This document shows, one piece after another, positions 3,828-44,979 of a DNA stretch of 64,000 nt. Under the pieces are notes generated by a model. It did not search any database and had not been told where the DNA came from. It saw only the letters and a program-made list of their open reading frames with translations. This stretch comes from Bacteroidota bacterium (GTDB lineage: Bacteria > Bacteroidota > Ignavibacteria > UBA10030 > UBA6906): positions 150,213 to 214,212 of the forward strand of contig JANNSJ010000058.1 of the NCBI GenBank assembly GCA_031402435.1. Direction: 5' to 3'. A program made the translations under genes and the position numbers. Positions within the stretch are counted from its first letter, which is position 1. Every line of letters begins with the position of its first letter.

Positions 3828-3838
3828 ACTGTCGTGCT

Positions 3839-4846
3839 TCATTGTCCATCAGATAACGCCACTGGAGCAAACACCTCCCCCAAGTTTTCTGGTAATGGAG
3901 CGACAGACGAACTTCGGTATATGTTGCCCTTGAGGGTTCCTGCGATAACACTTCCATTGCCACCCATTCTCAAACAACGTATTGCGTCGTCCGTAAGACT
4001 TCCTTGAACCTTTGCCCACGTCGCCGCATTATTTGATGAGCAAAACACGCCGCTTGTTGTGCCGACAAAGAGTTGTTCATGCAAGCAAACGGCCAGTGAT
4101 CCGGCGCTCTTGTTCGTGAGTCCGTTGTTCATCTGAGCCCACGTTACACCATTGTCCTGTGAGCGATACACTCCGCCTCCATTCGTGGCCGCAAAGAGAT
4201 TGCCGCTCGGGTGTCCGGTAATTTCCCAAACATCAAGACAAGTCAATCCTTTGTTGACCGCTCTCCAGTTCTTTCCATGGTTTGTTGAAAGAAAAATACC
4301 ATCCTTCGTTCCCGCGAGAATATCATTGTTCGAATTCGCCGTAATGGTGGCAACATAACAGCCATTCAATCCCGTTGCAACCCACGTCTCGCCATTATCG
4401 AGAGAACAGTACACGCCATGGCTCGAAGTCCCCGCGTACAGAGAACCATCTGGCGCAATTTCAAGAGAAACGATCTCAGTGCAATCCAGTCCGGTATTTG
4501 ATTGCACCCATCCGGAGATGTTGCCATCGTTTCGGTATACACCGCCGCCGAAGGTTCCGGCGAAGATCGTCCCGCGTGTATTTGCAACGAGAGCGAAAAC
4601 ATCCCTATCGGTTAATCCCGCGTTACGATCTGTCCATGTTTCACCCTGGTCAATGGACATGAAGACTCCCCCGCCAAAGGTCCCGGCGTAGATATGGCCG
4701 TTCGGCGTAACCGATATTGCCTGAATCGGAGTCTTTTCGAGAAACGGAGCAGAGCTTTTGGGATGTTCCTCAGATGTAGCGCGTGGTGAAAGGTGGGCAA
4801 GCAAAAATGAAAGCACTAACAGTGCCACAGCAATACGTCGGCTCAT
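3839..4846 (-). CDS. Secreted beta-propeller protein (BNR/Ycf48-like repeats)
   Basis: Signal peptide, then about seven ~41-aa repeats of type IFAGTFGGGV(F/Y)xSxDxGxTW; GGAG RBS before the ATG at 4846. Confidence 0.85.
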   Translation of the reverse strand: MSRRIAVALLVLSFLLAHLSPRATSEEHPKSSAPFLEKTPIQAISVTPNGHIYAGTFGGGVFMSIDQGETWTDRNAGLTDRDVFALVANTRGTIFAGTFGGGVYRNDGNISGWVQSNTGLDCTEIVSLEIAPDGSLYAGTSSHGVYCSLDNGETWVATGLNGCYVATITANSNNDILAGTKDGIFLSTNHGKNWRAVNKGLTCLDVWEITGHPSGNLFAATNGGGVYRSQDNGVTWAQMNNGLTNKSAGSLAVCLHEQLFVGTTSGVFCSSNNAATWAKVQGSLTDDAIRCLRMGGNGSVIAGTLKGNIYRSSSVAPLPENLGEVFAPVALSDGQ

Positions 4847-17366: not shown

Positions 17367-19757
17367 ATGTTTAGAGAACATCAAAGCCTGAGCGTCAAGA
17401 GCGTCTTTGACAGCATCAAGCTGACGTCGGATTCCCTGCTGCGCCTGCTTATTGCGGCTTCACTCGTCGTGCTTCTTGCGGTGATGTTCCCGCGCGGTGA
17501 GGAGATTGATGTTGATTATAAAGTCGGGGCTGTATGGTCGCAGAAGGACGTCATCGCACCAATTTCCTTTGCTCTCTTGCGTGAAGCGCGAGAATACGAG
17601 AAGGATGTAGAGCACGCAAAGCAATCGGTGTATCCTGTGTTCGAGCGGGACGCAGCAAGCGAAAAACATCAACATGAAAGGTTGAACGGGTTCTTTGAAC
17701 ATTTGGATAGTACGCTTGACGCCAGAGGGACGCTGAAGCAAAGCCAGAAGGAGCGACGCCCGTCGTTGCCCCGCGATTCGACAACCTTTGGTCGCATATC
17801 GCAGCGTATGGAAATTCCCCTTGCAGACGGTGAATGGGAAACTCTTGCAGCACTGAGAATGTCGGGTGGCATTGAACAACTAAAGCACTCACTCGTCGTT
17901 GCGTTACAGGAATTTCATACCGTCGGTGTGCTCGACCGTCTCAAGAGCAGCCTTGTACGTCCCATCATTGCTCTGCGCAAAGGCTCGCAGGAAGAGATCA
18001 TCCCGGTGGCACGCCTGTATGATCCTGGTGATGTGCAGGAGCTTCTTGATAAGTTTCTTGTACTGTCTTTCAAGGCAGATATCAAAATCCGTTCCCTGGC
18101 ATACAAGATCGGCATTACGCTCTTCGAACCAAATATCAGGTTCAGCGAAGCCGCGACACGACAGGCAATGGAAGCGGCGATCAGCACCGTTTCCCGGACG
18201 AATGGGTTTGTACAGGAAAACGAACGCATTGTCAGCAAGCACGAGCGGATAACCCCGGAGATCAAGTTGAAACTTGAATCGCTTGAACGCTCGCGTGCCG
18301 AGCGCGGGTCAAAGAGGGACTATTCACTCCAGCGATTCGGAATCGTGCTTCACGTTGTGATTGTCGTAATGCTGTACGGCATTTATTTGTATCTTTTCCG
18401 AAAGCGGATTTTTTGGAACAACCGCCACCTCGCGCTCATTGCGTTGTTGATGGTGATGGAGGGTTTCTTCGCATACGTCACCAGGGAAATGGATGTCAAC
18501 GCTCCGATTGAGTTCCTGATCTTTGTCCCGGCGGCTTCAATGCTCTTGACGATCATTTTCGACTCACGGGTGGGGTTCTATGGTACGGTCATCATCTCGT
18601 TGCTGGTTGCAGGAATTCGCGGGAATGATTATGCCATAGCGCTGACATCCATCATTGCGGGCGCCTTGGCGGTTTATACCGTGCGAGACATGCGCAACCG
18701 GTCACAGATCTTCCGCTCTCTCGGATTCATCTTTCTTGGATATGTGCTTTCGATTGTCGCCCTTGGTGTTGAACGATTTGCATCCGCAAGCACGCTTGTG
18801 GAGCAGCTTGTCTATGGGCTTGCCAACGCCATCGTGTCACCTGTGTTGACCTATGGACTCCTGATCTTCTTCGAGCGCGTCTTCAGGGTGACTACCGACC
18901 TGACGTTGATGGAACTTTCGCACTTCAATCATCCACTCCTGAAAAAACTCTCCGAACAGGCGCCCGGCACGTATCATCACAGCCTGACGATAGCGACGCT
19001 TGCCGAATCCGCCGCCTCTGCTGTTGGAGCAAACGAAGTTCTTGCGCGGGTAGGGGCACTGTTTCATGATATTGGCAAACTAGTGAAGCCGATGTATTTT
19101 TCGGAGAATCAAAAAGGATCGCGCAACAGGCACGATAAACTCACTCCGCGGATGAGTTCACTGATCATCTCCGCGCATGTGAAGGAAGGTGTGGCCCTCG
19201 GCGAGGAACATAGCTTGCCACGGGAAGTGATCGACTTTATCCCGATGCACCACGGGACAACACGGATCGAGTACTTTTATAACAAGGCCATGAATCTCGC
19301 CAGTCAGTCCGATGATGAGACAAAGATCGAGGAGATCAATGAACAGGACTACCGGTATCCCGGCCCGAAGCCGCAAACTCGCGAAACGGGAATTCTGATG
19401 CTTGCCGATGCCGTGGAAGCGTCCACGCGGACACTGGATGATCCCTCACCACAAAAATTGGAAGGCGTCATCGGAGAAATTATCAAGAAGAGGTTTGAGG
19501 AGGGCGAGTTGGACGAGTGTCCGCTTACGCTCAAAGACCTGACGAAGATACGTGCTGCGTTCCTCAATGTGTTGGTAGGAATACATCATACTCGCGTCAA
19601 GTATCCTGAGTTGCCAAAGAAGAGAACCCCCAGACCCAAGCGAGCTACACAGCTCTCCGGGCTGGCGTCACAAGATGTGTCGGCAAGTTCACCAATAACA
19701 CCGGCCTCACCGGACGCTTCGGGCCAAACAGAGAATGGAACGCAGAAGACAGAATGA
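17367..19757 (+). CDS. 7TM-HD (HDIG) membrane phosphohydrolase, PgpH-like
   Basis: N-terminal TM, large extracellular domain, 7 TM block, then HHSL...LFHDIGK...MHHG...MLADAVEA. Confidence 0.9.
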   Translation: MFREHQSLSVKSVFDSIKLTSDSLLRLLIAASLVVLLAVMFPRGEEIDVDYKVGAVWSQKDVIAPISFALLREAREYEKDVEHAKQSVYPVFERDAASEKHQHERLNGFFEHLDSTLDARGTLKQSQKERRPSLPRDSTTFGRISQRMEIPLADGEWETLAALRMSGGIEQLKHSLVVALQEFHTVGVLDRLKSSLVRPIIALRKGSQEEIIPVARLYDPGDVQELLDKFLVLSFKADIKIRSLAYKIGITLFEPNIRFSEAATRQAMEAAISTVSRTNGFVQENERIVSKHERITPEIKLKLESLERSRAERGSKRDYSLQRFGIVLHVVIVVMLYGIYLYLFRKRIFWNNRHLALIALLMVMEGFFAYVTREMDVNAPIEFLIFVPAASMLLTIIFDSRVGFYGTVIISLLVAGIRGNDYAIALTSIIAGALAVYTVRDMRNRSQIFRSLGFIFLGYVLSIVALGVERFASASTLVEQLVYGLANAIVSPVLTYGLLIFFERVFRVTTDLTLMELSHFNHPLLKKLSEQAPGTYHHSLTIATLAESAASAVGANEVLARVGALFHDIGKLVKPMYFSENQKGSRNRHDKLTPRMSSLIISAHVKEGVALGEEHSLPREVIDFIPMHHGTTRIEYFYNKAMNLASQSDDETKIEEINEQDYRYPGPKPQTRETGILMLADAVEASTRTLDDPSPQKLEGVIGEIIKKRFEEGELDECPLTLKDLTKIRAAFLNVLVGIHHTRVKYPELPKKRTPRPKRATQLSGLASQDVSASSPITPASPDASGQTENGTQKTE

Positions 19758-20656
19758 ACGATCACGTAAGAGATTATATTCATTACTTGCAGTTGGAAAA
19801 GAACGCTTCGAAGAACACCGTCGCATCATACAGCCTTGATATTAAGAGATACGTGGAGTTTCTTCGGGCCCATCGTGTGAAGGCTCTCGAAGCAGTGACG
19901 GAAGTGCATATGTCTCGCTTCATGACTGCATTGCACCATGAAGGACTATCCCCCCGATCTGTGACGCGGACACTTTCTGCAGTCAAAGGTTTTCACAAGT
20001 TTCTGGTTGGAGATGGTCTCGTTCACGCGAACCCGGCCGATAACATTGACCGCCCAAAACTTCCGCGCTCGCTCCCTGACGTATTAAGTCAACCCGAAGT
20101 GGATGCGATCTTAAATCAACCGGTTGCACTGCCGAACGACAAGCGCAACCTGTGGCTGCGCGACAAGGCGATTCTCGAGACACTCTACGCTACCGGCATG
20201 AGGGTGTCCGAAGTAATTGGCCTGAAGCAGGCAAATGTCCTGCCGGAGGAGGGAATCGTTCGCGTCTTTGGCAAGGGATCGAAGGAACGGATTGTGCCCA
20301 TTGGCGGTTCTGCACTACGATGGATTGCCCGTTATCAAAAGGAAGTACGAGGTCTTCTTGTTAAGAAAGGGAAATCGCAGGACGCCTTGTTCCTGAACGT
20401 CCGTGGAACGGCAATGACGCGTATGTCCGTCTGGAACATCGTCCAGGAATACACCACGAGCGCCGGGATTACGAAGGATGTGCATCCGCATACGTTCCGC
20501 CATTCATTTGCGACACACCTGCTCGAAGGTGGTGCGGATCTCCGCGCTGTGCAGGAGATGCTCGGGCACTCGGATATTTCAACGACACAGATTTATACTC
20601 ACATTGATCGTGAGTACCTGAAGGAAGTCCACAAGACATTTCATCCGAGAGGATGA
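19754..20656 (+). CDS. xerD: Site-specific tyrosine recombinase XerD
   Basis: RDKAILETLYATGMRVSE, GKGSKER, HPHTFRHSFATHLLEGGADLRAVQEMLGHSDISTTQIYTH. Confidence 0.93.
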   Translation: MNDHVRDYIHYLQLEKNASKNTVASYSLDIKRYVEFLRAHRVKALEAVTEVHMSRFMTALHHEGLSPRSVTRTLSAVKGFHKFLVGDGLVHANPADNIDRPKLPRSLPDVLSQPEVDAILNQPVALPNDKRNLWLRDKAILETLYATGMRVSEVIGLKQANVLPEEGIVRVFGKGSKERIVPIGGSALRWIARYQKEVRGLLVKKGKSQDALFLNVRGTAMTRMSVWNIVQEYTTSAGITKDVHPHTFRHSFATHLLEGGADLRAVQEMLGHSDISTTQIYTHIDREYLKEVHKTFHPRG

Positions 20657-35676: not shown

Positions 35677-36954
35677 CTACGCCTCGCGTTGTTCCTCAAT
35701 CACCTTGTCGGTAATCTTCACGTTGGATTTCAGAAATGCCATGATCTTGTCGGTGAGAAGACGCTCGTTACCGGCATTGGACATTTTGTAATACTCAATC
35801 AGCCGTTCTTTGTCCACACCGATGCGAACTGCGTCGGCTTCTGCAAGCTTTTCGAGTTCCTCTTCGGTCACCGTGATCTTCTCGACCTCTGTTATACATT
35901 GCTTCAGCAATGTCCACTTAGCTTGCCAGATGGCATACTCGCGGCTCTCTTCGCGGAACTTCTTCTCGTCGAAGTTCTTCGGAAGTTTCTTGTCGCGTGC
36001 CTTGTTCTTGACATCATCGACAAACGCGTCGAGAAAGGAGTTCACCATCGACTCCGGCACGGGAAACTCGTGCATCTTCACCAATTCCTGTGCGATTGCG
36101 TCGTCTACTTTTCGCTCGGCCTGTTCTGACCAATAGCGCTCGATATCCTGGCGCATATTCTGCTTGAATTCCTCCGGCGTGGAGAATTTCTCCGCAGAAA
36201 TCTTCTTCACCAACTCCGCATCGAATTCCGGAAGGTTGAGCTTCTCGATCTTCTTGACGGCGATGGAAAGGTTGACCGCGTGGGAATGGTCGCCGTGTTT
36301 CGATTCAAACGTCGCGCGGTACGTTTCTCCGACGGTAGCGGATTTCAACGCGTCCTTGATTTCCTTTATCAGGGTTGGATCAGACAGGGTGAAGCGCGTG
36401 TCCACAGATTTTTTGCCGATGACCGGCGCCCCGGTCTCATCGAGTTCATGGGCATCGGCGATGACGACATGTTCTTCATCGCTGACCGACTGCACTTCAG
36501 TGCTCGTACTATTTGATTGCCTGAGGTGATGGAGTTCGGCGTCGATCTCGGCATCCGCCACCTTGTGAACCGGCCTCTCAACATGGATGTTCTTGAACTT
36601 GCCTAACTCGATTTCCGGTTTCACGTCGTACTGGATTTTGAAGCGGAAATGGTCGCCACGCTTGAAGTCCATATCGACCATTGATGGCGTTCCGAGCGGC
36701 GTGATATTCTTCTCGATCATCGCCTTGCGGTAGACTTCGTTCGCCACTTCATCGAGTGCTTCATGTTCAATGGCATCCCCGTACAGTTTCTTCACGAGGT
36801 CCATGGGGGCTTTTCCCTTGCGGAATCCCTTCAGTTCAACTTTTGGTTGGTATTTCTGGTAGGCGGCGGTAAAATGCGGCTGCAACTCATCATTCGACAC
36901 ACTGATATCAGCTTCGTGGCGAACTTCGGAGATGGGATTGATGGTAATTTCCAA
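35677..36954 (-). CDS. tig: Trigger factor
   Basis: GFRKGKAP ribosome-binding motif; tig-clpP-clpX synteny; TTG start at 36954 with AAGGA RBS. Confidence 0.93.
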   Translation of the reverse strand: MEITINPISEVRHEADISVSNDELQPHFTAAYQKYQPKVELKGFRKGKAPMDLVKKLYGDAIEHEALDEVANEVYRKAMIEKNITPLGTPSMVDMDFKRGDHFRFKIQYDVKPEIELGKFKNIHVERPVHKVADAEIDAELHHLRQSNSTSTEVQSVSDEEHVVIADAHELDETGAPVIGKKSVDTRFTLSDPTLIKEIKDALKSATVGETYRATFESKHGDHSHAVNLSIAVKKIEKLNLPEFDAELVKKISAEKFSTPEEFKQNMRQDIERYWSEQAERKVDDAIAQELVKMHEFPVPESMVNSFLDAFVDDVKNKARDKKLPKNFDEKKFREESREYAIWQAKWTLLKQCITEVEKITVTEEELEKLAEADAVRIGVDKERLIEYYKMSNAGNERLLTDKIMAFLKSNVKITDKVIEEQREA

Positions 36955-36983
36955 CGTCTCGCTTCCTTTTTGATGATTGTTGA

Positions 36984-37034
36984 GTGGGCATAGAGGGATT
37001 TGAACCCCCGCGAGCCTCCTCACTAGATCCTAAG
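36984..37034 (-). repeat. Displaced 3' half of tRNA-Leu(TAG) (att direct repeat)
   Basis: 51 bp, 47/51 identical to 42935..42985; runs from the anticodon loop to the acceptor 3' strand. Confidence 0.9.
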
Positions 37035-37050
37035 AATATTGCTAGAGAGG

Positions 37051-37080
37051 AATATACCATTTCCAATTCAGTTTCAGCAA
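37051..37080 (-). promoter_or_regulatory. Candidate outward-facing promoter at the island edge reading into tig
   Basis: Minus strand TTGCTG-N18-TATATT with extended -10 (TGnTATATT). Confidence 0.45.
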
Positions 37081-37416
37081 CTTTTCCTTGTCCAAAATCT
37101 GTTTTCGGCGCCAATCAACTGATCGGTGGTAAGATTTTGGTAAGGTTTGTATCCAGCAGTGATGTTCTGCAATTGCTATTGGAAGATTATGGTAGGAATA
37201 TTCTTCATGAATTTCCAGTGGCAGCACCATGTAATAGAGTCATGTTCCCAACCTTCTCTATACACCCCGATCTTGGAATTCTGCTCCTGTGCCATGTCCC
37301 TCGCATCTCAAGGTCACAAACAGCCGCCCTACTCCTCAAGGGGATGAAACCCGCTATGACAGGCAACTGGGGCCGGATCGAACTGTTTGTCGTGGCTGCC
37401 GGCAACGAGGCGGGTA

Positions 37417-37445
37417 TTGACAAGACTGGTTTATTCCTTTACTTT
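37417..37445 (+). promoter_or_regulatory. Candidate sigma70 promoter of the island ECF gene
   Basis: TTGACA-N17-TACTTT ending 44 nt before ATG 37490. Confidence 0.55.
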
Positions 37446-37489
37446 CAATCAGTTGAATAATTGTTCTTGCACCAATCTCTAAACCACTC

Positions 37490-38059
37490 ATGCCCGAACG
37501 CCCGCCACTAGACATCACTCTACTGTTGGAAGATTGCATCAACGGGAGAAAAGGGGCCGTTGATAAGCTCCTTCCTCTGGTTTATGGAGAGCTGAAAAGA
37601 ATAGCGTCGAAGTATCTACGCGATGAATATCGTCAGCATACATTCCAAACCACTGAGCTGGTTCATGAAGCCTACATGAAACTTATCGGCGGAGAGAATA
37701 TCAATTGGCAGAACAGGGCGCATTTTTTTGGGATAGCAGCAAACTCGATGCGCCAGATTCTCGTCGATTATGCCCGAAAGCGCAATTCTCAGAAAAGGGG
37801 AGAAGGTCAAACCATTCTCTCACTCAATGAAGCTTTGGGGATTGCGGTTCAATCAGACGAAGACATACTCGCACTTGATGAAGCTCTGAAAAAGTTGGAA
37901 TCATTTGACGCGGGATTAAACAAGATTGTTGAGTTGAGATTCTTTGCGGGACTCAATGTCGAAGAAACGGCAAGTGTACTCGGTAGTTCTGCTTCTACTG
38001 TAAAGCGAGAGTGGAGTTTAGCAAGAGCCTGGTTGTTCCGGGAACTGGGAAAGGAATAG
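37490..38059 (+). CDS. ECF sigma factor, TIGR02999 / ECF43-like (kinase-associated)
   Basis: LLPLVYGELKRIA, FQTTELVHEAYMKL, WQNRAHFFGIAANSMRQILVDYAR, VELRFFAGL, STVKREWSLARAWL. Confidence 0.92.
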   Translation: MPERPPLDITLLLEDCINGRKGAVDKLLPLVYGELKRIASKYLRDEYRQHTFQTTELVHEAYMKLIGGENINWQNRAHFFGIAANSMRQILVDYARKRNSQKRGEGQTILSLNEALGIAVQSDEDILALDEALKKLESFDAGLNKIVELRFFAGLNVEETASVLGSSASTVKREWSLARAWLFRELGKE

Positions 38060-38220
38060 GGCGATTCCCACCGAATAATGAATATATGAGACTTTCCCTG
38101 AATAACCCTTTGACGAGAAAGCCCTCCTTACAAAGTGATTTGACCCCGTTTTTCAAATTCTACGCATGTATTTGTAGAACGGTGCTCACCAAACTCAAAT
38201 CATTCATCAAAGGAGGCTTT

Positions 38221-40176
38221 ATGAAAGTGTCAACACGTATTGTATTTATTGCCTGTTCCCTTTTCGTTCAATCATTGACAGCTACGTCGCAGTTTCTTCA
38301 GGAAAGGAAACTCATTGGCGGGCCTGCCGTCGGGTCGGCTGTATATCAAGGTTATTCAGTTTCACTTTCAGCCGATGGGAATACAGCGATGATGGGTGGG
38401 ATAGGTGACAATGCGAATGCCGGCGCAGCATTTGTATTCACCCGAAGCAGTTCCAGTGGCGCGTGGGTTCAGCAAGGAAATAAACTTGTCGGCACAGGCG
38501 CTGTTGGGAGCGCAAGCCAGGGCTTTGCTGTCGCCCTTTCTGCCGATGGGAATACGGCTATCGTGGGTGGATTGGGTGACAATACTTTCGCCGGCGCAGC
38601 GTGGGTCTTTACCAGAAGCGGCGGCTCATGGAGTCAACAAGGAAACAAGCTCGTCGGTACAGGAGCAACCGGTGTGGCACAACAAGGGAATGCTGTTGCA
38701 CTCTCAGCCGATGGGAATACGGCCATCATCGGTGGATATCGTGACAACACTTTTGCAGGTGCAGCATGGGTTTTTACGCGAAGCGGCAGCGTCTGGAGTC
38801 AGCAAGGGAACAAACTTGTCGCCACAGATGCCGTCGGGTTCGCGAGGCAAGGGATTTCTGTTGACCTTTCATCTGATGGCAATACCGCTATCGTTGGCGG
38901 GCATACGGACAATGCAAACGCGGGAGCAGCGTGGATATATACGCGTATTGGCGGATCGTGGTCACTGCAACGTAAGCTCGTTGGCACAGGCGCTGTAGGG
39001 AGTGCACGACAGGGTCGCTCGGTTGCCCTTTCAGACGACGGGAATACTGCTCTCGTTGGTGGATATGAAGACGATGCTTCGGCGGGTGCTGTTTGGGTAT
39101 TCACGCGAAGTGGCGGCGTGTGGGCTCAGCAAGGAAACAAATTTCGCGGCACAGGCGCTGTCGGAAATGCAAGTCAAGGGCTTGCTGTCTCTCTTTCAGG
39201 CGATGGCAATACTGCTCTCGTTGGCGGCATTGATGACAACGCCTTCGCGGGCGCAGCGTGGATATTCACGCGCAGTGGCGGTGTGTGGTCTCAGTTAGGA
39301 AACAAACTCTTCGGCTCGGGCGCTGTCGGGAATGCAAACCAAGGCGGTGCTGTTGCCATTTCATCGAGCGGGAATAGGGTTATCGTTGGTGGGATAGCTG
39401 ACAATGCTAACTTTGGTGCTGCCTGGGTGTATTCGCGTGACGGCTCAACGTTCTCACGCACCAATCTGAACAAGTTTATTTTTGATAATCAACTCGTGTT
39501 TGATACGATTCAAGTTTCATCGAATTCCCCACTCGCCACAATTGTTCGCGATGTGGATGTGTCCGTTATTATCACTCATCCGAACGTCAGCGATTTGGAA
39601 ATCTCTCTTGTGCATCTCGGCGTTACAGATACACTGGTCTACCAAGTGGGAGGAACCGGCGATAACTTTTCCGGGACAGTGCTTGATGATTCTGCAGTAA
39701 CACCGATTGCAAACGGTGTAGCCCCATTTAGCGGTCGCTACATACCAACCAGACCGTTGGCTCAATTCAATTCGCTCGACGCTGCGGGTTCGTGGATCCT
39801 CCGTGTGTTTGATCGAGCAACAGGAAATACTGGAACGCTGAGCGGATGGTCTCTTACACTTGGCACTTCTGCCGGTCCGACATCTGTTGACCGGATTTCT
39901 CACGAAACGCCGGAGGGGTTTGTGTTAAAGCAGAACTATCCGAACCCTTTTAACCCGTCAACAACAATTAGTTTCTCGATTCCGCGTTCTGCGGCAGTGT
40001 CTCTAAAGGTGTTCGACCTTCTTGGCAAAGAAGTTGCGACGCTCGTACGCGAGGAGTTGAAGTCTGGAAGCTACGAAACAACCTTCGAGGGCAATGGGCT
40101 GTCGAGCGGCATGTATTTCTATCGTCTCGAAGCTGGCGGATTTGTTCAGACGAAAAAGCTTGTATTGCAGAAGTGA
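38221..40176 (+). CDS. T9SS-secreted protein: 7 FG-GAP-like repeats, proprotein-convertase P-domain, T9SS CTD
   Basis: AAAGGAGG RBS; seven ~55-aa repeats (VALSADGNTAIVGG..DN..AGAAWVFTRSGG.W.QQGNKL); ITHPNVSDLEISL...GSWILRVFDRATGNTGTLSGWSL; QNYPNPFNPSTTISF. Confidence 0.9.
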   Translation: MKVSTRIVFIACSLFVQSLTATSQFLQERKLIGGPAVGSAVYQGYSVSLSADGNTAMMGGIGDNANAGAAFVFTRSSSSGAWVQQGNKLVGTGAVGSASQGFAVALSADGNTAIVGGLGDNTFAGAAWVFTRSGGSWSQQGNKLVGTGATGVAQQGNAVALSADGNTAIIGGYRDNTFAGAAWVFTRSGSVWSQQGNKLVATDAVGFARQGISVDLSSDGNTAIVGGHTDNANAGAAWIYTRIGGSWSLQRKLVGTGAVGSARQGRSVALSDDGNTALVGGYEDDASAGAVWVFTRSGGVWAQQGNKFRGTGAVGNASQGLAVSLSGDGNTALVGGIDDNAFAGAAWIFTRSGGVWSQLGNKLFGSGAVGNANQGGAVAISSSGNRVIVGGIADNANFGAAWVYSRDGSTFSRTNLNKFIFDNQLVFDTIQVSSNSPLATIVRDVDVSVIITHPNVSDLEISLVHLGVTDTLVYQVGGTGDNFSGTVLDDSAVTPIANGVAPFSGRYIPTRPLAQFNSLDAAGSWILRVFDRATGNTGTLSGWSLTLGTSAGPTSVDRISHETPEGFVLKQNYPNPFNPSTTISFSIPRSAAVSLKVFDLLGKEVATLVREELKSGSYETTFEGNGLSSGMYFYRLEAGGFVQTKKLVLQK

Positions 40177-40226
40177 TTAATCGTGTAGCGCAAATGCAGT
40201 TTCTTATCATTCTCGATTGAGCGACA

Positions 40227-42794
40227 ATGGATGAACGAACCTGGTCTGATGTAAAGACGATATTCTTTCACGCAGTTGATTTAGGGCCCGGCGAGAGGGA
40301 AGAGTACCTGAAGGAACATTGCAAAGGTGCCGCGTTGCAACAGGAACTCCATTCCCTCCTTGCCGCGCACGATAAGTCCGAGAAGTTTCTCGAAGGTTCA
40401 AGCATTCCCACCAGCTCGGCAACTGACAATCACAATGTCTTCGTCGGCAAGATGTTTGGCAAGTATACGATTGAAAAACTCATCGCCAGGGGCGGCATGG
40501 GGCTGGTGTATCTTGCTTTCCGTGATGATGCAGTGAAGCAGAAGGCTGCGGTAAAAATAATCAACCCGGGGCTTGCTTCCGGCATTGTGATAAAGAGGTT
40601 TCAGAATGAACGGCAGACGCTCGCCAATCTCAATCATCCGAATATATCGCGTCTGCTTGACGGTGGAATCACAGAAGATGGCATCCAGTTCTTCGTGATG
40701 GAATACATCGATGGTATTCCCATCGATGAGTACTGTGACAATAACAAACTCAACATCAGGGAGCGGCTGAGACTCTTTCTGAAAGCTGCTTCGGTCGTTC
40801 AGTTTGCACATCACAACCTCGTCGTTCATCGAGACCTCAAGCCGCGCAATATTCTTATCACGAAGGACGGAGAACCAAAACTCCTCGATTTCGGAATCGC
40901 CAAGATCTTGACCCCCGAAGGTGAGCAGCAGGAAACATTAACCCAGAAGGGAACATGGAATCTTACTCCTGAGTTTGCAAGTCCTGAACAGGTCAAGGGA
41001 GAAGCAATCACTACCGCAAGTGATGTGTATTCTCTTGGTATAGTTCTCTACAGGCTTTTGACCGGACATACTCCGTATAGAATAACAAGCCCGCTGCATT
41101 CCGATATTCGAGCGATCGTCACGGAAACAGAACCCCGCAAGCCCAGCGAAATCATCTTTCAGCCAATCGAATCAGAAGGCGGCGATACCGTTACAATCAA
41201 TCCTGAATCAGTGGCAATGGCAAGAGAAGACAGTATCGGGAAACTTCAAAAGACTCTGGCTGGTGAGCTTGATACCATTGTTGCGATGGCAATCCGAAAG
41301 GAACCCGAAAGGAGATATCCCTCAGTTGATCACTTCGCTGAAGATATCAGAAGATATTTGGACAACAAGCCCGTGTATGCGCACAAGGATACGTTCGGAT
41401 ATAGAAGCAGGAAATTCATAAGGAGGAACAAGACTGCTGCAGGATTCATCTCGACAATATCGCTGGCAGTCCTGTTGGGCATAGCTGGAATCGTCTGGCA
41501 ATCTCAACTGACTGCACGGGAAAGAGACATCGCAAAGCTTGAAGCGGAAAAGGCAAACAGGATAAAATCTCTGTTGCTGGAAATGATCTCGTCTCCCGAT
41601 CCGAGAAAGGACGGCCGCAAAGTCACGGTGATGGATGTTCTTCACGGAGCCTCGCATCGTATGTCGGTTGAATTGGCCGGTCAGCCACAGATTGAAACCG
41701 AGATGCGGTCAATGCTCGGGAATACGTATCAAAACCTTGGCATCTATGATTCAGCCGAGACTGAATTCTTCAAAGCCCATGAACTGACAAAGAAACTTTT
41801 TGGTGAACGTAGCAAAGAGACAGCGATGAGTCTCCAGTCTCTCGGGCTTGTGTACCAATACCGGGGCGATTTGGAAAAGACAGAACAATACTTCAAGCAG
41901 TCCCTTGAGATGATGAAATCAGTAGAAACAAAACCCTCATTCGAAACTGCACTTATGCTGGATGCATACGGCACACTCATGTCTGAAAAGGGGGACTATA
42001 AAAAAGCGGAAGAACTCACCATGGAAGCCTTAAAGATTGGCGAGGCAATACGAGGGGCTGACGATCCGAAGGTTGCGGAGTTCAAGAACAACCTGGCAAC
42101 CTCGTACAACTATCTGAAAAAACCGGATAAAGCTGACTCGTTGTACAGAGAAAGCCTGCAGGTGTTTCGAAAGCACTACGGCAACTCACATTTGCTGGTT
42201 TCGAGCAGCCTGAACAATCTCGCGTTCATTAACATTTTCAAAAAGGATCATTCAGGTGCTTTGCCTCTGCTTGTGGAATCGTTGAATATCAAACGGGCAA
42301 TTCTCGGTGAAGACCACCCCGATCTTATTCTCGCATATTCGAATGTCGGCAGTACATACTTTAACATTCACCAGTACGAAAAAGCCGGAGAATTCATGAA
42401 GGCTTCCGTTGATGTCGGTCTCAAGAATTATGATGAAGACAATATCAGCCTGAGTCGCTCATACATGTGGTACGGGAGAATCTTCGATGCAAGGGGAGGG
42501 CTTGACAGTGCAATTTTCTTTTTGAGGAAGGCGTATCACATTCGAAAGAGAGAACTGGGTGCTAACAATAACATAACGCTGGCAACGCAGAATCAATTGG
42601 GCAAGAGCCTTCTCCACAAACGAGATTTTGTTGATGCTGAAAAACACCTGCTTGAGAGTTACAAAGGGTTTAGTGATGTTGCAGGAAAGGATGATGACTC
42701 CACCCAGAAGGCTCTCATCGCATTGGTTGATCTTTACAAAGCGTGGAGGAAAAAGGACAAAGAAGATTACTATGCTGCGTTGATTCAGAAGTAA
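40227..42794 (+). CDS. Hanks-type Ser/Thr protein kinase with TM segment and extracytoplasmic TPR domain
   Basis: ARGGMGLVY, AVK, HRDLKPRNIL, DFGIAK, TPEFASPEQ, DVYSLG; TM around AVLLGIAGIVW; TPR-like repeats after it. Confidence 0.95.
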   Translation: MDERTWSDVKTIFFHAVDLGPGEREEYLKEHCKGAALQQELHSLLAAHDKSEKFLEGSSIPTSSATDNHNVFVGKMFGKYTIEKLIARGGMGLVYLAFRDDAVKQKAAVKIINPGLASGIVIKRFQNERQTLANLNHPNISRLLDGGITEDGIQFFVMEYIDGIPIDEYCDNNKLNIRERLRLFLKAASVVQFAHHNLVVHRDLKPRNILITKDGEPKLLDFGIAKILTPEGEQQETLTQKGTWNLTPEFASPEQVKGEAITTASDVYSLGIVLYRLLTGHTPYRITSPLHSDIRAIVTETEPRKPSEIIFQPIESEGGDTVTINPESVAMAREDSIGKLQKTLAGELDTIVAMAIRKEPERRYPSVDHFAEDIRRYLDNKPVYAHKDTFGYRSRKFIRRNKTAAGFISTISLAVLLGIAGIVWQSQLTARERDIAKLEAEKANRIKSLLLEMISSPDPRKDGRKVTVMDVLHGASHRMSVELAGQPQIETEMRSMLGNTYQNLGIYDSAETEFFKAHELTKKLFGERSKETAMSLQSLGLVYQYRGDLEKTEQYFKQSLEMMKSVETKPSFETALMLDAYGTLMSEKGDYKKAEELTMEALKIGEAIRGADDPKVAEFKNNLATSYNYLKKPDKADSLYRESLQVFRKHYGNSHLLVSSSLNNLAFINIFKKDHSGALPLLVESLNIKRAILGEDHPDLILAYSNVGSTYFNIHQYEKAGEFMKASVDVGLKNYDEDNISLSRSYMWYGRIFDARGGLDSAIFFLRKAYHIRKRELGANNNITLATQNQLGKSLLHKRDFVDAEKHLLESYKGFSDVAGKDDDSTQKALIALVDLYKAWRKKDKEDYYAALIQK

Positions 42795-42935
42795 TCTGGA
42801 CGTGGATTTGCAAACGTGCAGCAACAGCAACTTGACTGAAAGAGGAGTGCGGTGGAGGGGCTCAATATTGCCGGGAACGATTGTATGAATAGGTAAGATT
42901 CGGGGAACCCGGGAAAATGATACAGAAAACCTAAG

Positions 42936-43017
42936 TGGGCATAGAGGGACTTGAACCCCCACGAGTTTCCTCACTAGATCCTAAGTCTAGCGCGTCTGCC
43001 AATTTCGCCATATGCCC
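42936..43017 (-). tRNA. trnL: tRNA-Leu (anticodon TAG)
   Basis: Reverse complement GGGCATATGGCGAAATTGGCAGACGCGCTAGACTTAGGATCTAGTGAGGAAACTCGTGGGGGTTCAAGTCCCTCTATGCCCA; long variable arm; loop CTTAGGA. Confidence 0.97.
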
Positions 43018-43103: not shown

Positions 43104-44840
43104 CTACTTGAGTGGCAGCGTCAGTCGTATTGTGGTGCCGACATTTTCAACCGACTCTATCTCGATTTGACCACCATGGTCGTCGATAATTTTCTTCACG
43201 ATCGCGAGACCAAGTCCTGTGCCGTGCCGTTTTCCATGGGTGAAAAATGGTTCGAACACTCTTGCCTTGATGGAATCCGGAATTCCTTTCCCGGTATCGG
43301 TGATACTAATCTGAATACCATTACCACTCTGTTCCGTGCGGATGGTAAGTGTTCCGCCATCGGGCATCGCATCGGCTGCATTGCCGGCGAGATTGTAGAG
43401 CACGCGCTCCATTTTTGCCAGGTCAAGTGTACACATGCCCGTGTACTGAAAATCCCGGACGATGGCGATGCGTTTTTCCCGGAAGTCTGCCTCAATGAAC
43501 TTCAATGACGCATCGATAATGTCAATCAATTTGACGGATTCGATAGTCATCTCACTCACTCCGCGGGAGTAATCGAGAATCTCCTGCGTCATCTTCACAA
43601 ACCGATCCACCTGGTGCATCATCTCATCTGCATATTGAGATACTTCGGCGTCCGGGACCTTGCGTTTGATAAGCTGGGCATACAAACGCACGATGCTCAT
43701 CGGGTTTTTGATATCATGGATGATGGTTCCCGCCATGCGACCGACCATGGAGAGTTGTTCACTCTTCATCATTTCCTGTGCAAGGCGTGCATTCTCCAGC
43801 GCAATGGAGGCATGGATTGACAGTGCGTCGATGAAGGATGCATCGTCAGCAGTGAACGCCCCCTGTTTCTTGTTGAGGAATTGAAATACGCCGACAATCT
43901 CATTCTCTTTGTTCTTGAGCGGCATGCAGAGCACATTGTGAGTATGGTATCCGCTTTTTTTGTCAATTTCCGGGTTGAACCTGGGGTCGCCATAAGCGTC
44001 AGGGATGTTCACGGTCTCGCCGGTCTTTGCAACATACCCAGCGAGGCCCTTGCCAACGGGCAAGCGGATTTCCGTTATGTCTTTTCCCTGGGCGGCCTTG
44101 GCCCAAAGTTCTCCTCGTTCTTTGTCGAGAAGATAAAGCGTCCCCCGCTCCGCCTGAATGCTGTTCGACGCCGCGTTGAGAATAAGCACCAGCAACTTGT
44201 CAATGTCGATCGTGGAATTGACGATCTTGCTCGCTTCGATGAGCAGGCTCAGGCGGTCGAGCTTGGCTTTCGAGGAGATGACATTCCGCTCCAGTTCGCT
44301 GACAAATGTCTGGTCAATTGTGCGGAGACGAAGGGCGAGGTTCTTCAGCAGGTTGAACGTGAAAGCGTCACTCTCCGCGATGAGTGATCGAAATTCACTG
44401 GAACTGAAGAACACGATGGTGCAGGGATCCACTGCTTCGGCGCGAGCCGACCGGGAGAGTCCGTCCAATATGGAAAGCTCCCCAAAAAAATCCCCCTCGT
44501 GCAGCACTGCAAGGAGCGATTCAATACCGTATTTGGTATATTTCTTTATGCGAACCCGGCCGCCGAGAAGCAGGTACAGGTAGCGTCCCTTGGTCGACTC
44601 GTCGAAGATAATGTCACCGGCTTTGTATTGGCGCACCACAAGTTTGGGGATGATGGACTTCAAACTTTTCGGGTTGACGCCGGAGAAGAGTACGTTCCGC
44701 TTGATTGCCTGAAGGGTGTTGCCGTTCGGTTGTATAAGGCGCCGGGATGGCTTGGTTGGTGGTTTTCGTACCGGAGATGACCGTTTTGCAGCGGATCGTT
44801 TTCGCTTGGCGATTGCGTTGCCGCTTTTTTTCTTCTTCAT
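43104..44840 (-). CDS. Cytoplasmic histidine kinase: cNMP-binding domain, GAF, HisKA, HATPase
   Basis: cNMP motifs LLGGRVRI, GDFFGELSIL, RSARAEA; GAF (GKGLAGYV, DAYGDPRFNPEIDKKSGY, LCMPL); HDIKNP; GTGLGL. Start placed at MKKKK (44840). Confidence 0.9.
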   Translation of the reverse strand: MKKKKSGNAIAKRKRSAAKRSSPVRKPPTKPSRRLIQPNGNTLQAIKRNVLFSGVNPKSLKSIIPKLVVRQYKAGDIIFDESTKGRYLYLLLGGRVRIKKYTKYGIESLLAVLHEGDFFGELSILDGLSRSARAEAVDPCTIVFFSSSEFRSLIAESDAFTFNLLKNLALRLRTIDQTFVSELERNVISSKAKLDRLSLLIEASKIVNSTIDIDKLLVLILNAASNSIQAERGTLYLLDKERGELWAKAAQGKDITEIRLPVGKGLAGYVAKTGETVNIPDAYGDPRFNPEIDKKSGYHTHNVLCMPLKNKENEIVGVFQFLNKKQGAFTADDASFIDALSIHASIALENARLAQEMMKSEQLSMVGRMAGTIIHDIKNPMSIVRLYAQLIKRKVPDAEVSQYADEMMHQVDRFVKMTQEILDYSRGVSEMTIESVKLIDIIDASLKFIEADFREKRIAIVRDFQYTGMCTLDLAKMERVLYNLAGNAADAMPDGGTLTIRTEQSGNGIQISITDTGKGIPDSIKARVFEPFFTHGKRHGTGLGLAIVKKIIDDHGGQIEIESVENVGTTIRLTLPLK

Positions 44841-44979
44841 AACAAGTAATGCGCGTTCGTTGGTACACCAGCATTTGCCCGGATCATCAACCGCGGTTCT
44901 TCGGTGATGTCGGCGCAACAAGTACATTGCATTTGCGTGATATAATAGGTAAATCACTTTCCAGAGTCAACCAGACCAG

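Follow-up and report, generated by a model that had tools for sequence, protein, structure and literature searches.

How did a segment of nearly 6 kb carrying three signalling genes come to lie between a tRNA gene and the housekeeping operon that it adjoins in related genomes? The question is raised by a 64,000-nt stretch of contig JANNSJ010000058.1 from an uncultured, Ignavibacteria-like Bacteroidota bacterium of sediment (GCA_031402435.1), the whole of which is called the window here. In it, tRNA-Leu(TAG) and tig-clpP-clpX are parted by a cassette encoding an extracytoplasmic function (ECF) sigma factor, a secreted FG-GAP protein and a Ser/Thr kinase. The segment is confirmed as a true insertion between tRNA-Leu and tig, with borders and empty site mapped to the base; it is probably what is left, fixed and integrase-less, of a tRNA-gene (tDNA) island put in place by site-specific integration, and it has the layout of a cis-mobilizable element (CIME). 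The main reference is the contig of a sister metagenome-assembled genome (MAG), L023 (GCA_031379955.1, 15.6 kb), which was reached via 90%-identity protein clusters; other contigs used in comparison are likewise given L numbers, and sequencing runs X numbers. The elements on which the argument turns are these:

42935-43017, minus strand: intact tRNA-Leu(TAG), the only tRNA-Leu(TAG) called by ARAGORN
42934-42985, minus strand: attL-side repeat, the 3' 52 nt of tRNA-Leu (repeat search)
36983-37034, minus strand: attR-side repeat, the displaced tRNA-Leu 3' stump, from anticodon loop to 3' end (repeat search)
37035-42933, no strand: island interior, 5,899 nt, without counterpart in the sister genome (blastn against L023)
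35677-36954, minus strand: tig (trigger factor), native downstream flank, with a TTG start at 36954 (Pfam, translation, gene call in L017)
43104-44957, minus strand: cNMP-binding/GAF histidine kinase (HK), native upstream flank (Pfam; syntenic in L001, where it is 70% identical, and in L023)

The direct repeat formed by 36983-37034 and 42934-42985 is 52 nt long and identical at 48 of its 52 positions (92%); a 26-nt probe taken from it matches at these two places only in the 64 kb, with 0 matches expected from shuffles. Read in the tRNA sense, it opens with CTTAGGA, the 7-nt anticodon loop, and continues through the 3' arm of the anticodon stem, the variable arm, the T arm and the 3' acceptor strand to a point 2 nt downstream of the discriminator. 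Immediately 5' of the loop the tRNA has A and the island T, and identity therefore ends exactly at the stem/loop junction; the borders of the repeat are this junction (position 31/32) and the tRNA 3' end +2. Four mismatches set the stump apart from the live tRNA, at 36999, 37010 and 37015-16; they affect the T loop, the nucleotide that precedes the T stem and the loop of the variable arm, all of them further 3' than the anticodon loop and flanking stem arm, which are identical between the repeats. The preliminary description, made from the letters of the window alone, had seen an intact tRNA-Leu with a second copy of its 3' part and had let identity end where the anticodon loop begins; ARAGORN and the repeat search bear out the former and the differing base the latter, the one correction being that the two copies are not perfect, as it had implied. 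The intact tRNA is identical to that of L023 and at 85/86 positions to that of L003. No further tRNA-Leu fragments were found in the window or in L003.

The empty site is seen directly in L023, which has the order ABC transporter gene, HK, tRNA-Leu, 29 nt, tig, clpP, clpX and no insert. By blastn, L023 1-5659 corresponds to window 48592-42934 (98.1%, gap-free) and L023 5608-8914 to window 37034-33730 (94.4%), the 52 nt at L023 5608-5659 aligning to both of the window's repeats; the window therefore equals L023 plus 5,951 nt. Removal of one repeat with the interior thus restores a tRNA-Leu directly upstream of tig-clpP-clpX, just as had been proposed. In the window, too, tig (97% identical in nucleotides to that of L023) is followed by clpP and then clpX, and the gap from the stump to the TTG start at 36954 is 29 nt. 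A sister strain in run X4 has both flanks at a depth of 10-14 and the island at about 0 at a likeness of at least 90%, and its contig on the tig side joins the spacer directly to the tRNA 3' end. A search with tig, taking one genome per species, gave 13 relatives, all MAGs labelled Bacteroidetes or Ignavibacteriota, with tig 40-73% identical; in 11 of them tRNA-Leu(TAG) lies directly upstream of tig. Synteny with L001 holds on both sides (ABC ATPase, cNMP/GAF HK 70% identical, tRNA-Leu, 42 nt, tig), and in both L001 and L023 the junction between tRNA and tig is colinear with the stump, on through spacer and tig. Because 11 of the 13 relatives have tRNA-Leu(TAG) beside tig, the insert-free arrangement is the ancestral one. 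The empty tRNA-Leu-tig site that the preliminary description had suggested seeking is accordingly present in L023, in the X4 sister strain and in more distant relatives, and the arrangement of the window is far from being common to all of them, which it had named as the contrary outcome.

The other contrary outcome, an assembly artefact, was considered and is ruled out by the agreement of three assemblies from two studies. Two Logan assemblies (L017 and L018, from runs X1 and X2) carry clpX-clpP-tig-stump-cassette with 0 differences and extend into the 5' half of the tRNA, and a 151-nt contig of run X3, which belongs to another study, spans the stump/island junction, again with 0 differences. 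Diverged copies of the island, 91-99% identical, occur in runs of three further studies. A contig of X5 (corresponding to 36948-37097) has the same junction with the live-tRNA base at 4/4 mismatch positions, and one of X9 (37007-37151) has the live-tRNA base at 37010 and the window's CC at 37015-16. Together with the window these form a stepwise series of decay, and because the X5 and X9 variants show no substitutions or an intermediate number, the stump is the displaced native half, which matched the tRNA when the insertion occurred and has been drifting since. That the stump was imported from a donor whose tRNA was variant but functional was also considered, and is contradicted by the stepwise change in X5 and X9. 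The argument for it was that 4/4 of the stump changes affect bases which the tRNA leaves unpaired, a pattern short of significance (about 0.05; with TT>CC counted as a single event, about 0.1).

A drift of 4/52 is consistent with the neutral divergence of the window from L023 near the site, where 5/29 positions of the tRNA-tig spacer differ and four-fold-site divergence runs from 0 to 0.27 by gene (ABC permease 0, ABC ATPase 0.006, tig 0.06, HK and peptidase M24 0.07-0.08, clpP 0.16, clpX 0.27). The tRNA and the 86 nt upstream of it are identical to L023, while the 29-nt spacer across the insertion point differs at 5; this mosaicism indicates frequent homologous recombination, with a breakpoint at the island. 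No alternative junction or empty site was seen in the contigs of the island-holding runs, contigs being apt to miss rare forms. Because the stump decays stepwise across strains of different studies, the evidence favours an old scar that is immobile and has been passed on vertically; the island is intact and probably expressed. The preliminary description had spoken of a domesticated or trans-mobilised element, reduced to three genes: "domesticated" agrees with an island that is old, inherited and intact; "trans-mobilised" is unsupported, in view of the decay of the stump and the lack of alternative junctions; and reduction from a larger element likewise finds no support.

The interior and the one recombinase gene elsewhere in the window are made up as follows:

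37035-37489, no strand: orphan island end, 455 nt, from stump to ECF gene, probably non-coding (Pfam, PHROG, phmmer)
37490-38059, plus strand: ECF sigma factor of the PF07638 type, 189 aa (Pfam E = 4.7e-54)
38221-40176, plus strand: secreted FG-GAP repeat protein with a P-domain and a C-terminal sorting domain of the type IX secretion system (T9SS) (Pfam)
40227-42794, plus strand: Hanks-type Ser/Thr kinase with a C-terminal tetratricopeptide repeat (TPR) domain (Pfam, motifs, hydropathy)
19754-20656, plus strand: Xer-type tyrosine recombinase, 300 aa, with Phage_integrase and SAM-like N domains (Pfam)

No other 5.9-kb stretch of the window deviates as far in tetranucleotide use as the island, the interior of which has an L1 distance of 0.187 against 0.126 +/- 0.013 (maximum 0.167) for the window, a figure that may be somewhat inflated by the internal repeats of the FG-GAP and TPR genes; its GC content, 48.4% against 51.2%, is the lowest in the window. 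The comparison of composition recommended earlier thus marks it as an outlier on both counts. The island holds no recombinase and no relic of one. Pfam finds no recombinase domain in the three interior genes, and the small open reading frames of both ends (455 nt beside the stump, 140 nt on the tRNA side) have no match in Pfam (E up to 5) or PHROGs. The one sizeable candidate for a relic of an integrase, an open frame of 142 codons at 37035-37460, returns itself alone in a phmmer search among 1.84 billion representative proteins, is broken in the X9 variant by deletions of 43, 8 and 1 nt, and was rejected. The earlier statement that no integrase lies between the repeats is therefore upheld by Pfam, PHROGs and phmmer alike. 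The Xer-type protein is the only recombinase in the 64 kb; its gene is conserved in the sister strain and stands in a housekeeping context, between those for a 7TM-HD protein and a class-V aminotransferase. The island ends have no terminal inverted repeat. Exact-pattern scans of JGI metagenome contigs and IMG/VR yielded 0 stump-type and 0 live-type 3' halves and are hence uninformative.

Islands with an attachment site centred on the anticodon of a tRNA gene were reportedly described by Reiter in 1989 and by Williams in 2002. The borders of the repeat, lying as they do on tRNA landmarks, have the look of an attP shaped to regenerate a tRNA, and we infer that the mechanism of insertion was site-specific. 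A circular DNA would have carried an attachment site equivalent to tRNA-Leu(TAG) from the anticodon loop to the 3' end and have recombined with the resident tRNA-Leu, the exchange taking place in or at the anticodon loop, as with anticodon-centred tyrosine integrases. The incoming 3' half would have completed the tRNA, so that the gene stayed functional, and the resident half would have been pushed 5.9 kb away, to a place beside tig where it has presumably been decaying ever since; the recombinase may have acted in trans or been lost later, with nothing left of it.

Among mapped tDNA islands this geometry is that of the commonest class: of 3,919 islands collected by Islander, a 3' fragment is left by 3,760, and the attachment site is centred on the anticodon in 2,083 (PMC4383910). 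The island of the window resembles these in its intact tRNA gene and displaced 3' fragment in direct orientation, in a block of identity that runs from the anticodon loop to the tRNA 3' end, in the precise empty site of relatives and in its compositionally deviant cargo. It differs in having no tyrosine integrase gene, which Islander requires, in its small size (just 5.9 kb, three genes) and in showing neither arm sites nor a core dyad. The layout also fits that of a CIME, a decayed remnant of an integrative and conjugative element (ICE) or integrative and mobilizable element (IME) which has lost its integration genes and kept attL and attR (PMC5704250): here, too, integration and transfer genes are lacking, both att-derived repeats are retained and the site is the 3' part of a tRNA gene. 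Unlike a typical CIME, the island gives no sign of ICE or IME descent or of mobilisation, its attR is 8% diverged and it has no tandem partner element. The tycheposon islands of Prochlorococcus include degenerate elements with scattered partial tRNAs (preprint 10.1101/2020.12.28.424599), and the remnants among them are comparable as stretches of cargo alone, with partial tRNA copies at their borders, that earlier integrations have left at a tRNA hot spot; the present island belongs to another phylum and another tRNA, is a single unit rather than an accreted one, and has no visible integrase or replication genes of the tycheposon type.

A number of observations weigh against such an origin. With no integrase between the repeats, the enzyme is purely inferred; no motif shared between the two island ends rises above shuffles, so that arm sites are not visible, though the recognition sites of an integrase not known here could not be recognised by such a comparison; the five island-side nucleotides before the loop (ATATT) match the stem arm at only 2/5 positions and appear to lack the dyad symmetry with the 3' stem arm expected of a core-type integrase site; neither a related element with an integrase nor a copy of the cassette between tRNA-Leu halves turned up; and the relatives of the cassette sit at ordinary chromosomal loci.

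Several of these points are just what would be expected had the insertion been the work of RecA, by a single Campbell-type crossover between the chromosome and a circle containing the cassette and 52 nt of tRNA-Leu, with no site-specific enzyme involved. Such a circle might have come from transformation, from a vesicle or from an excised segment, and the crossover would have duplicated the homologous segment. The lack of any recombinase or relic in the island, the lack of visible arm-site-like motifs or a core dyad, and the evident mosaicism of the strains through homologous recombination (four-fold-site divergence 0 to 0.27 by gene) all fit this. What it leaves unexplained, unless the circle itself derived from an element made by an integrase, is why the ends of the duplicated segment fall within 0-2 nt of tRNA landmarks; 52 nt is moreover a very short substrate for RecA, and the geometry is the modal one of integrase-made islands. 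On balance a crossover of this kind, the chief competitor of site-specific integration, is an unlikely source of the island, though one with some real chance of being correct. If instead attL and attR were still usable, the cassette might be a satellite, excised and re-integrated by an integrase encoded elsewhere in the genome or on a co-resident element. CIMEs can be mobilised by related elements (PMC5704250), and the 7-nt loop and the flanking stem arm have remained identical in the two repeats. Continuing mobility is nonetheless improbable when set against the four stepwise substitutions of the stump across strains, which speak for long residence without turnover, against the contigs of island-holding runs, in which no alternative junction or empty site was found (rare forms would escape them), and against the fact that the sole tyrosine recombinase of the 64-kb window is of the Xer type and in a housekeeping context.

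It might also be supposed that the island was ancestral at this site and was lost from L023, X4 and the other relatives, as a deletion by way of the 52-nt direct repeats could occur and would leave a normal tRNA behind; the X5 variant, moreover, may have the island together with a spacer like that of the sister. Such a history would demand independent, precise losses in many lineages, in which tig is only 54-73% identical to that of the window; the cassette is found at the tRNA-Leu-tig site in no relative, its relatives occupy other loci, and the island is an outlier in composition, all of which makes the supposition scarcely credible. A remnant of a tDNA island, put in place by site-specific integration, thus remains the preferred reading.

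The FG-GAP gene is started at 38086 by the gene caller, and a signal-peptide-like start lies at 38221. Between 38347 and 39441 it contains seven 165-nt (55-aa) repeats, with 62-74% DNA identity to each other, a structure kept in the copy of L014. The kinase has intact HRD and DFG motifs and one transmembrane helix at about residues 402-426; its orthologues are proteins of about 855 aa, 59-75% identical, from Ignavibacteria-like MAGs. The nearest complete cassette, in L014 (GCA_016218065.1), shares all three genes and their order, with amino acid identities of 77% for the sigma factor, 81% for the FG-GAP protein and 75% for the kinase. It is flanked by a hybrid histidine kinase and a rhodanese gene, and no tRNA-Leu, tig, integrase or flanking repeat was found at that locus. 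The pairing of a PF07638 sigma factor with a kinase of the Pkinase, transmembrane and TPR type occurs not only in L014 but also in L016, L019, L021 and L022, and modules of sigma factor, T9SS cargo and kinase are found in other relatives at different loci again, either as single units or in tandem arrays. Tandem arrays of two to three modules are seen in Ignavibacteria genomes at L016:6468-17906, L019:1-13307 and L022:2228-17049, the secreted cargo varying among BNR/sortilin, SBBP and FG-GAP proteins. The ECF/T9SS-cargo/kinase-TPR modules look like a large paralogous sense-and-secrete family, and the cargo of the island is a type of module native to the phylum and multi-copy in Ignavibacteria genomes rather than an exotic element. 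The ECF, FG-GAP and kinase proteins of the window have no second member in their 90% clusters, and the sister is therefore without the cassette altogether, not merely at the tRNA-Leu site. Because the sister strain lacks it and the island is compositionally deviant, this copy was gained by the lineage of the window, and it looks foreign there.

As to its function, the cassette most likely works in the manner of the kinase-regulated ECF sigma factors (ECF43 type), a grouping of the sigma factor that is judged by its Pfam match alone and not by an ECF classifier. The periplasmic TPR domain of the membrane-bound Hanks kinase would serve as the signal sensor; phosphorylation of the sigma factor by the kinase would follow, and the phosphorylated sigma factor would activate the FG-GAP gene lying between the two partners, its likely target; this kinase-sigma-target logic is deduced from domain content. 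PknS-EcfK of Xanthomonas citri is an example of such a pair (PMC13147305; for the ECF43 classification, PMC7826278), and the resemblance lies in an ECF sigma factor that is near a transmembrane Ser/Thr kinase and has no adjacent anti-sigma gene: no match of the ZAS or other anti-sigma type was found in the cassette. The T9SS-secreted FG-GAP gene between the partners and the TPR sensor domain are differences from that pair.

The same locus has been altered in other ways in other genomes. The tRNA-Leu(TAG) upstream of tig is split by an insert of about 110-140 nt at L002:4786-4983, L004:9730-9950 and L005:9687-9890; each insert consists of a complete, different tRNA-Leu(TAG) within an inverted repeat, the outer gene being dead or decaying. 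The inverted repeat is TCCCGCAAACGC / GCGTTTGCGGGA in L002 and CTGCCCGC... / ...GCGGGC in both L004 and L005, which have a common insertion point in the D-arm. This nested replacement-tRNA layout is found here in Bacteroidota/Ignavibacteriota-like MAGs; in L002 a gene for a Y2-transposase (PF04986, IS91-like) lies directly upstream of the split tRNA-Leu, at 3834-4586. Unlike these hairpin-flanked mini-cassettes, which split the resident tRNA without duplication, the island of the window has no tRNA of its own and no terminal inverted repeat, and it duplicates 52 nt. At L003:3780-10000 there are 5.6 kb between HK and tRNA-Leu, with GNAT, NmrA, ankyrin, methyltransferase, AraC and CMD genes; between tRNA and tig L003 has a spacer of 554 nt, and no tRNA fragment was found. 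With different inserts in the window, L002, L003, L004 and L005, the HK-tRNA-Leu-tig locus is a recurrent hot spot for insertion. It is conceivable, as a decidedly long shot, that the Ignavibacteriota possess an unlinked, trans-acting recombination system that puts integrase-less signalling cassettes into tRNA anticodon loops; the present island, with its 3'-half duplication and ECF/kinase-TPR cargo, would be one of its products and HK-tRNA-Leu-tig one of its hot spots. Strain-specific regions are present elsewhere as well: the X4 sister strain has no counterpart of at least 90% identity to the window at 50.9-60 kb, nor to parts of 29.8-34.2 kb, and two large proteins with T9SS tails are encoded downstream of clpX at L023:9047-14735 and are missing from the window.

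The insertion also bears on the transcription of the genes that it displaced. A gap of 29-55 nt parts the tRNA from the start of tig in the relatives, too short to hold a promoter of its own, and tig-clpP-clpX was therefore in the ancestral state likely co-transcribed with tRNA-Leu, the promoter of which (TTGAAG-17-TATCTT) is conserved. In the window 5.9 kb separate these genes from the tRNA promoter, and the genes of the island have the opposite orientation, so that transcription of tig must start within the 455-nt island end; the promoter of tig-clpP-clpX would thus have been replaced. The best outward candidate in a promoter scan is TTGCTG-18-TATATT at 37080-37051 (minus strand), a weak match to the consensus with a -10 element that is altered in the X5 variant, and no weight is placed on it here.

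Taken alone, the island reveals no new mechanism and belongs to a known kind of tDNA-island scar. What the case does show is a complete module of sigma factor, receptor kinase and secreted protein moving between Ignavibacteria-like genomes via a tRNA attachment site. As a single further example, the case also bears on the reason for which small cassettes with tRNA flanks are so frequently without an integrase. A signalling circuit can thus be acquired as one unit, and a housekeeping operon such as tig-clpP-clpX can, through such an insertion, lose its ancestral tRNA promoter.

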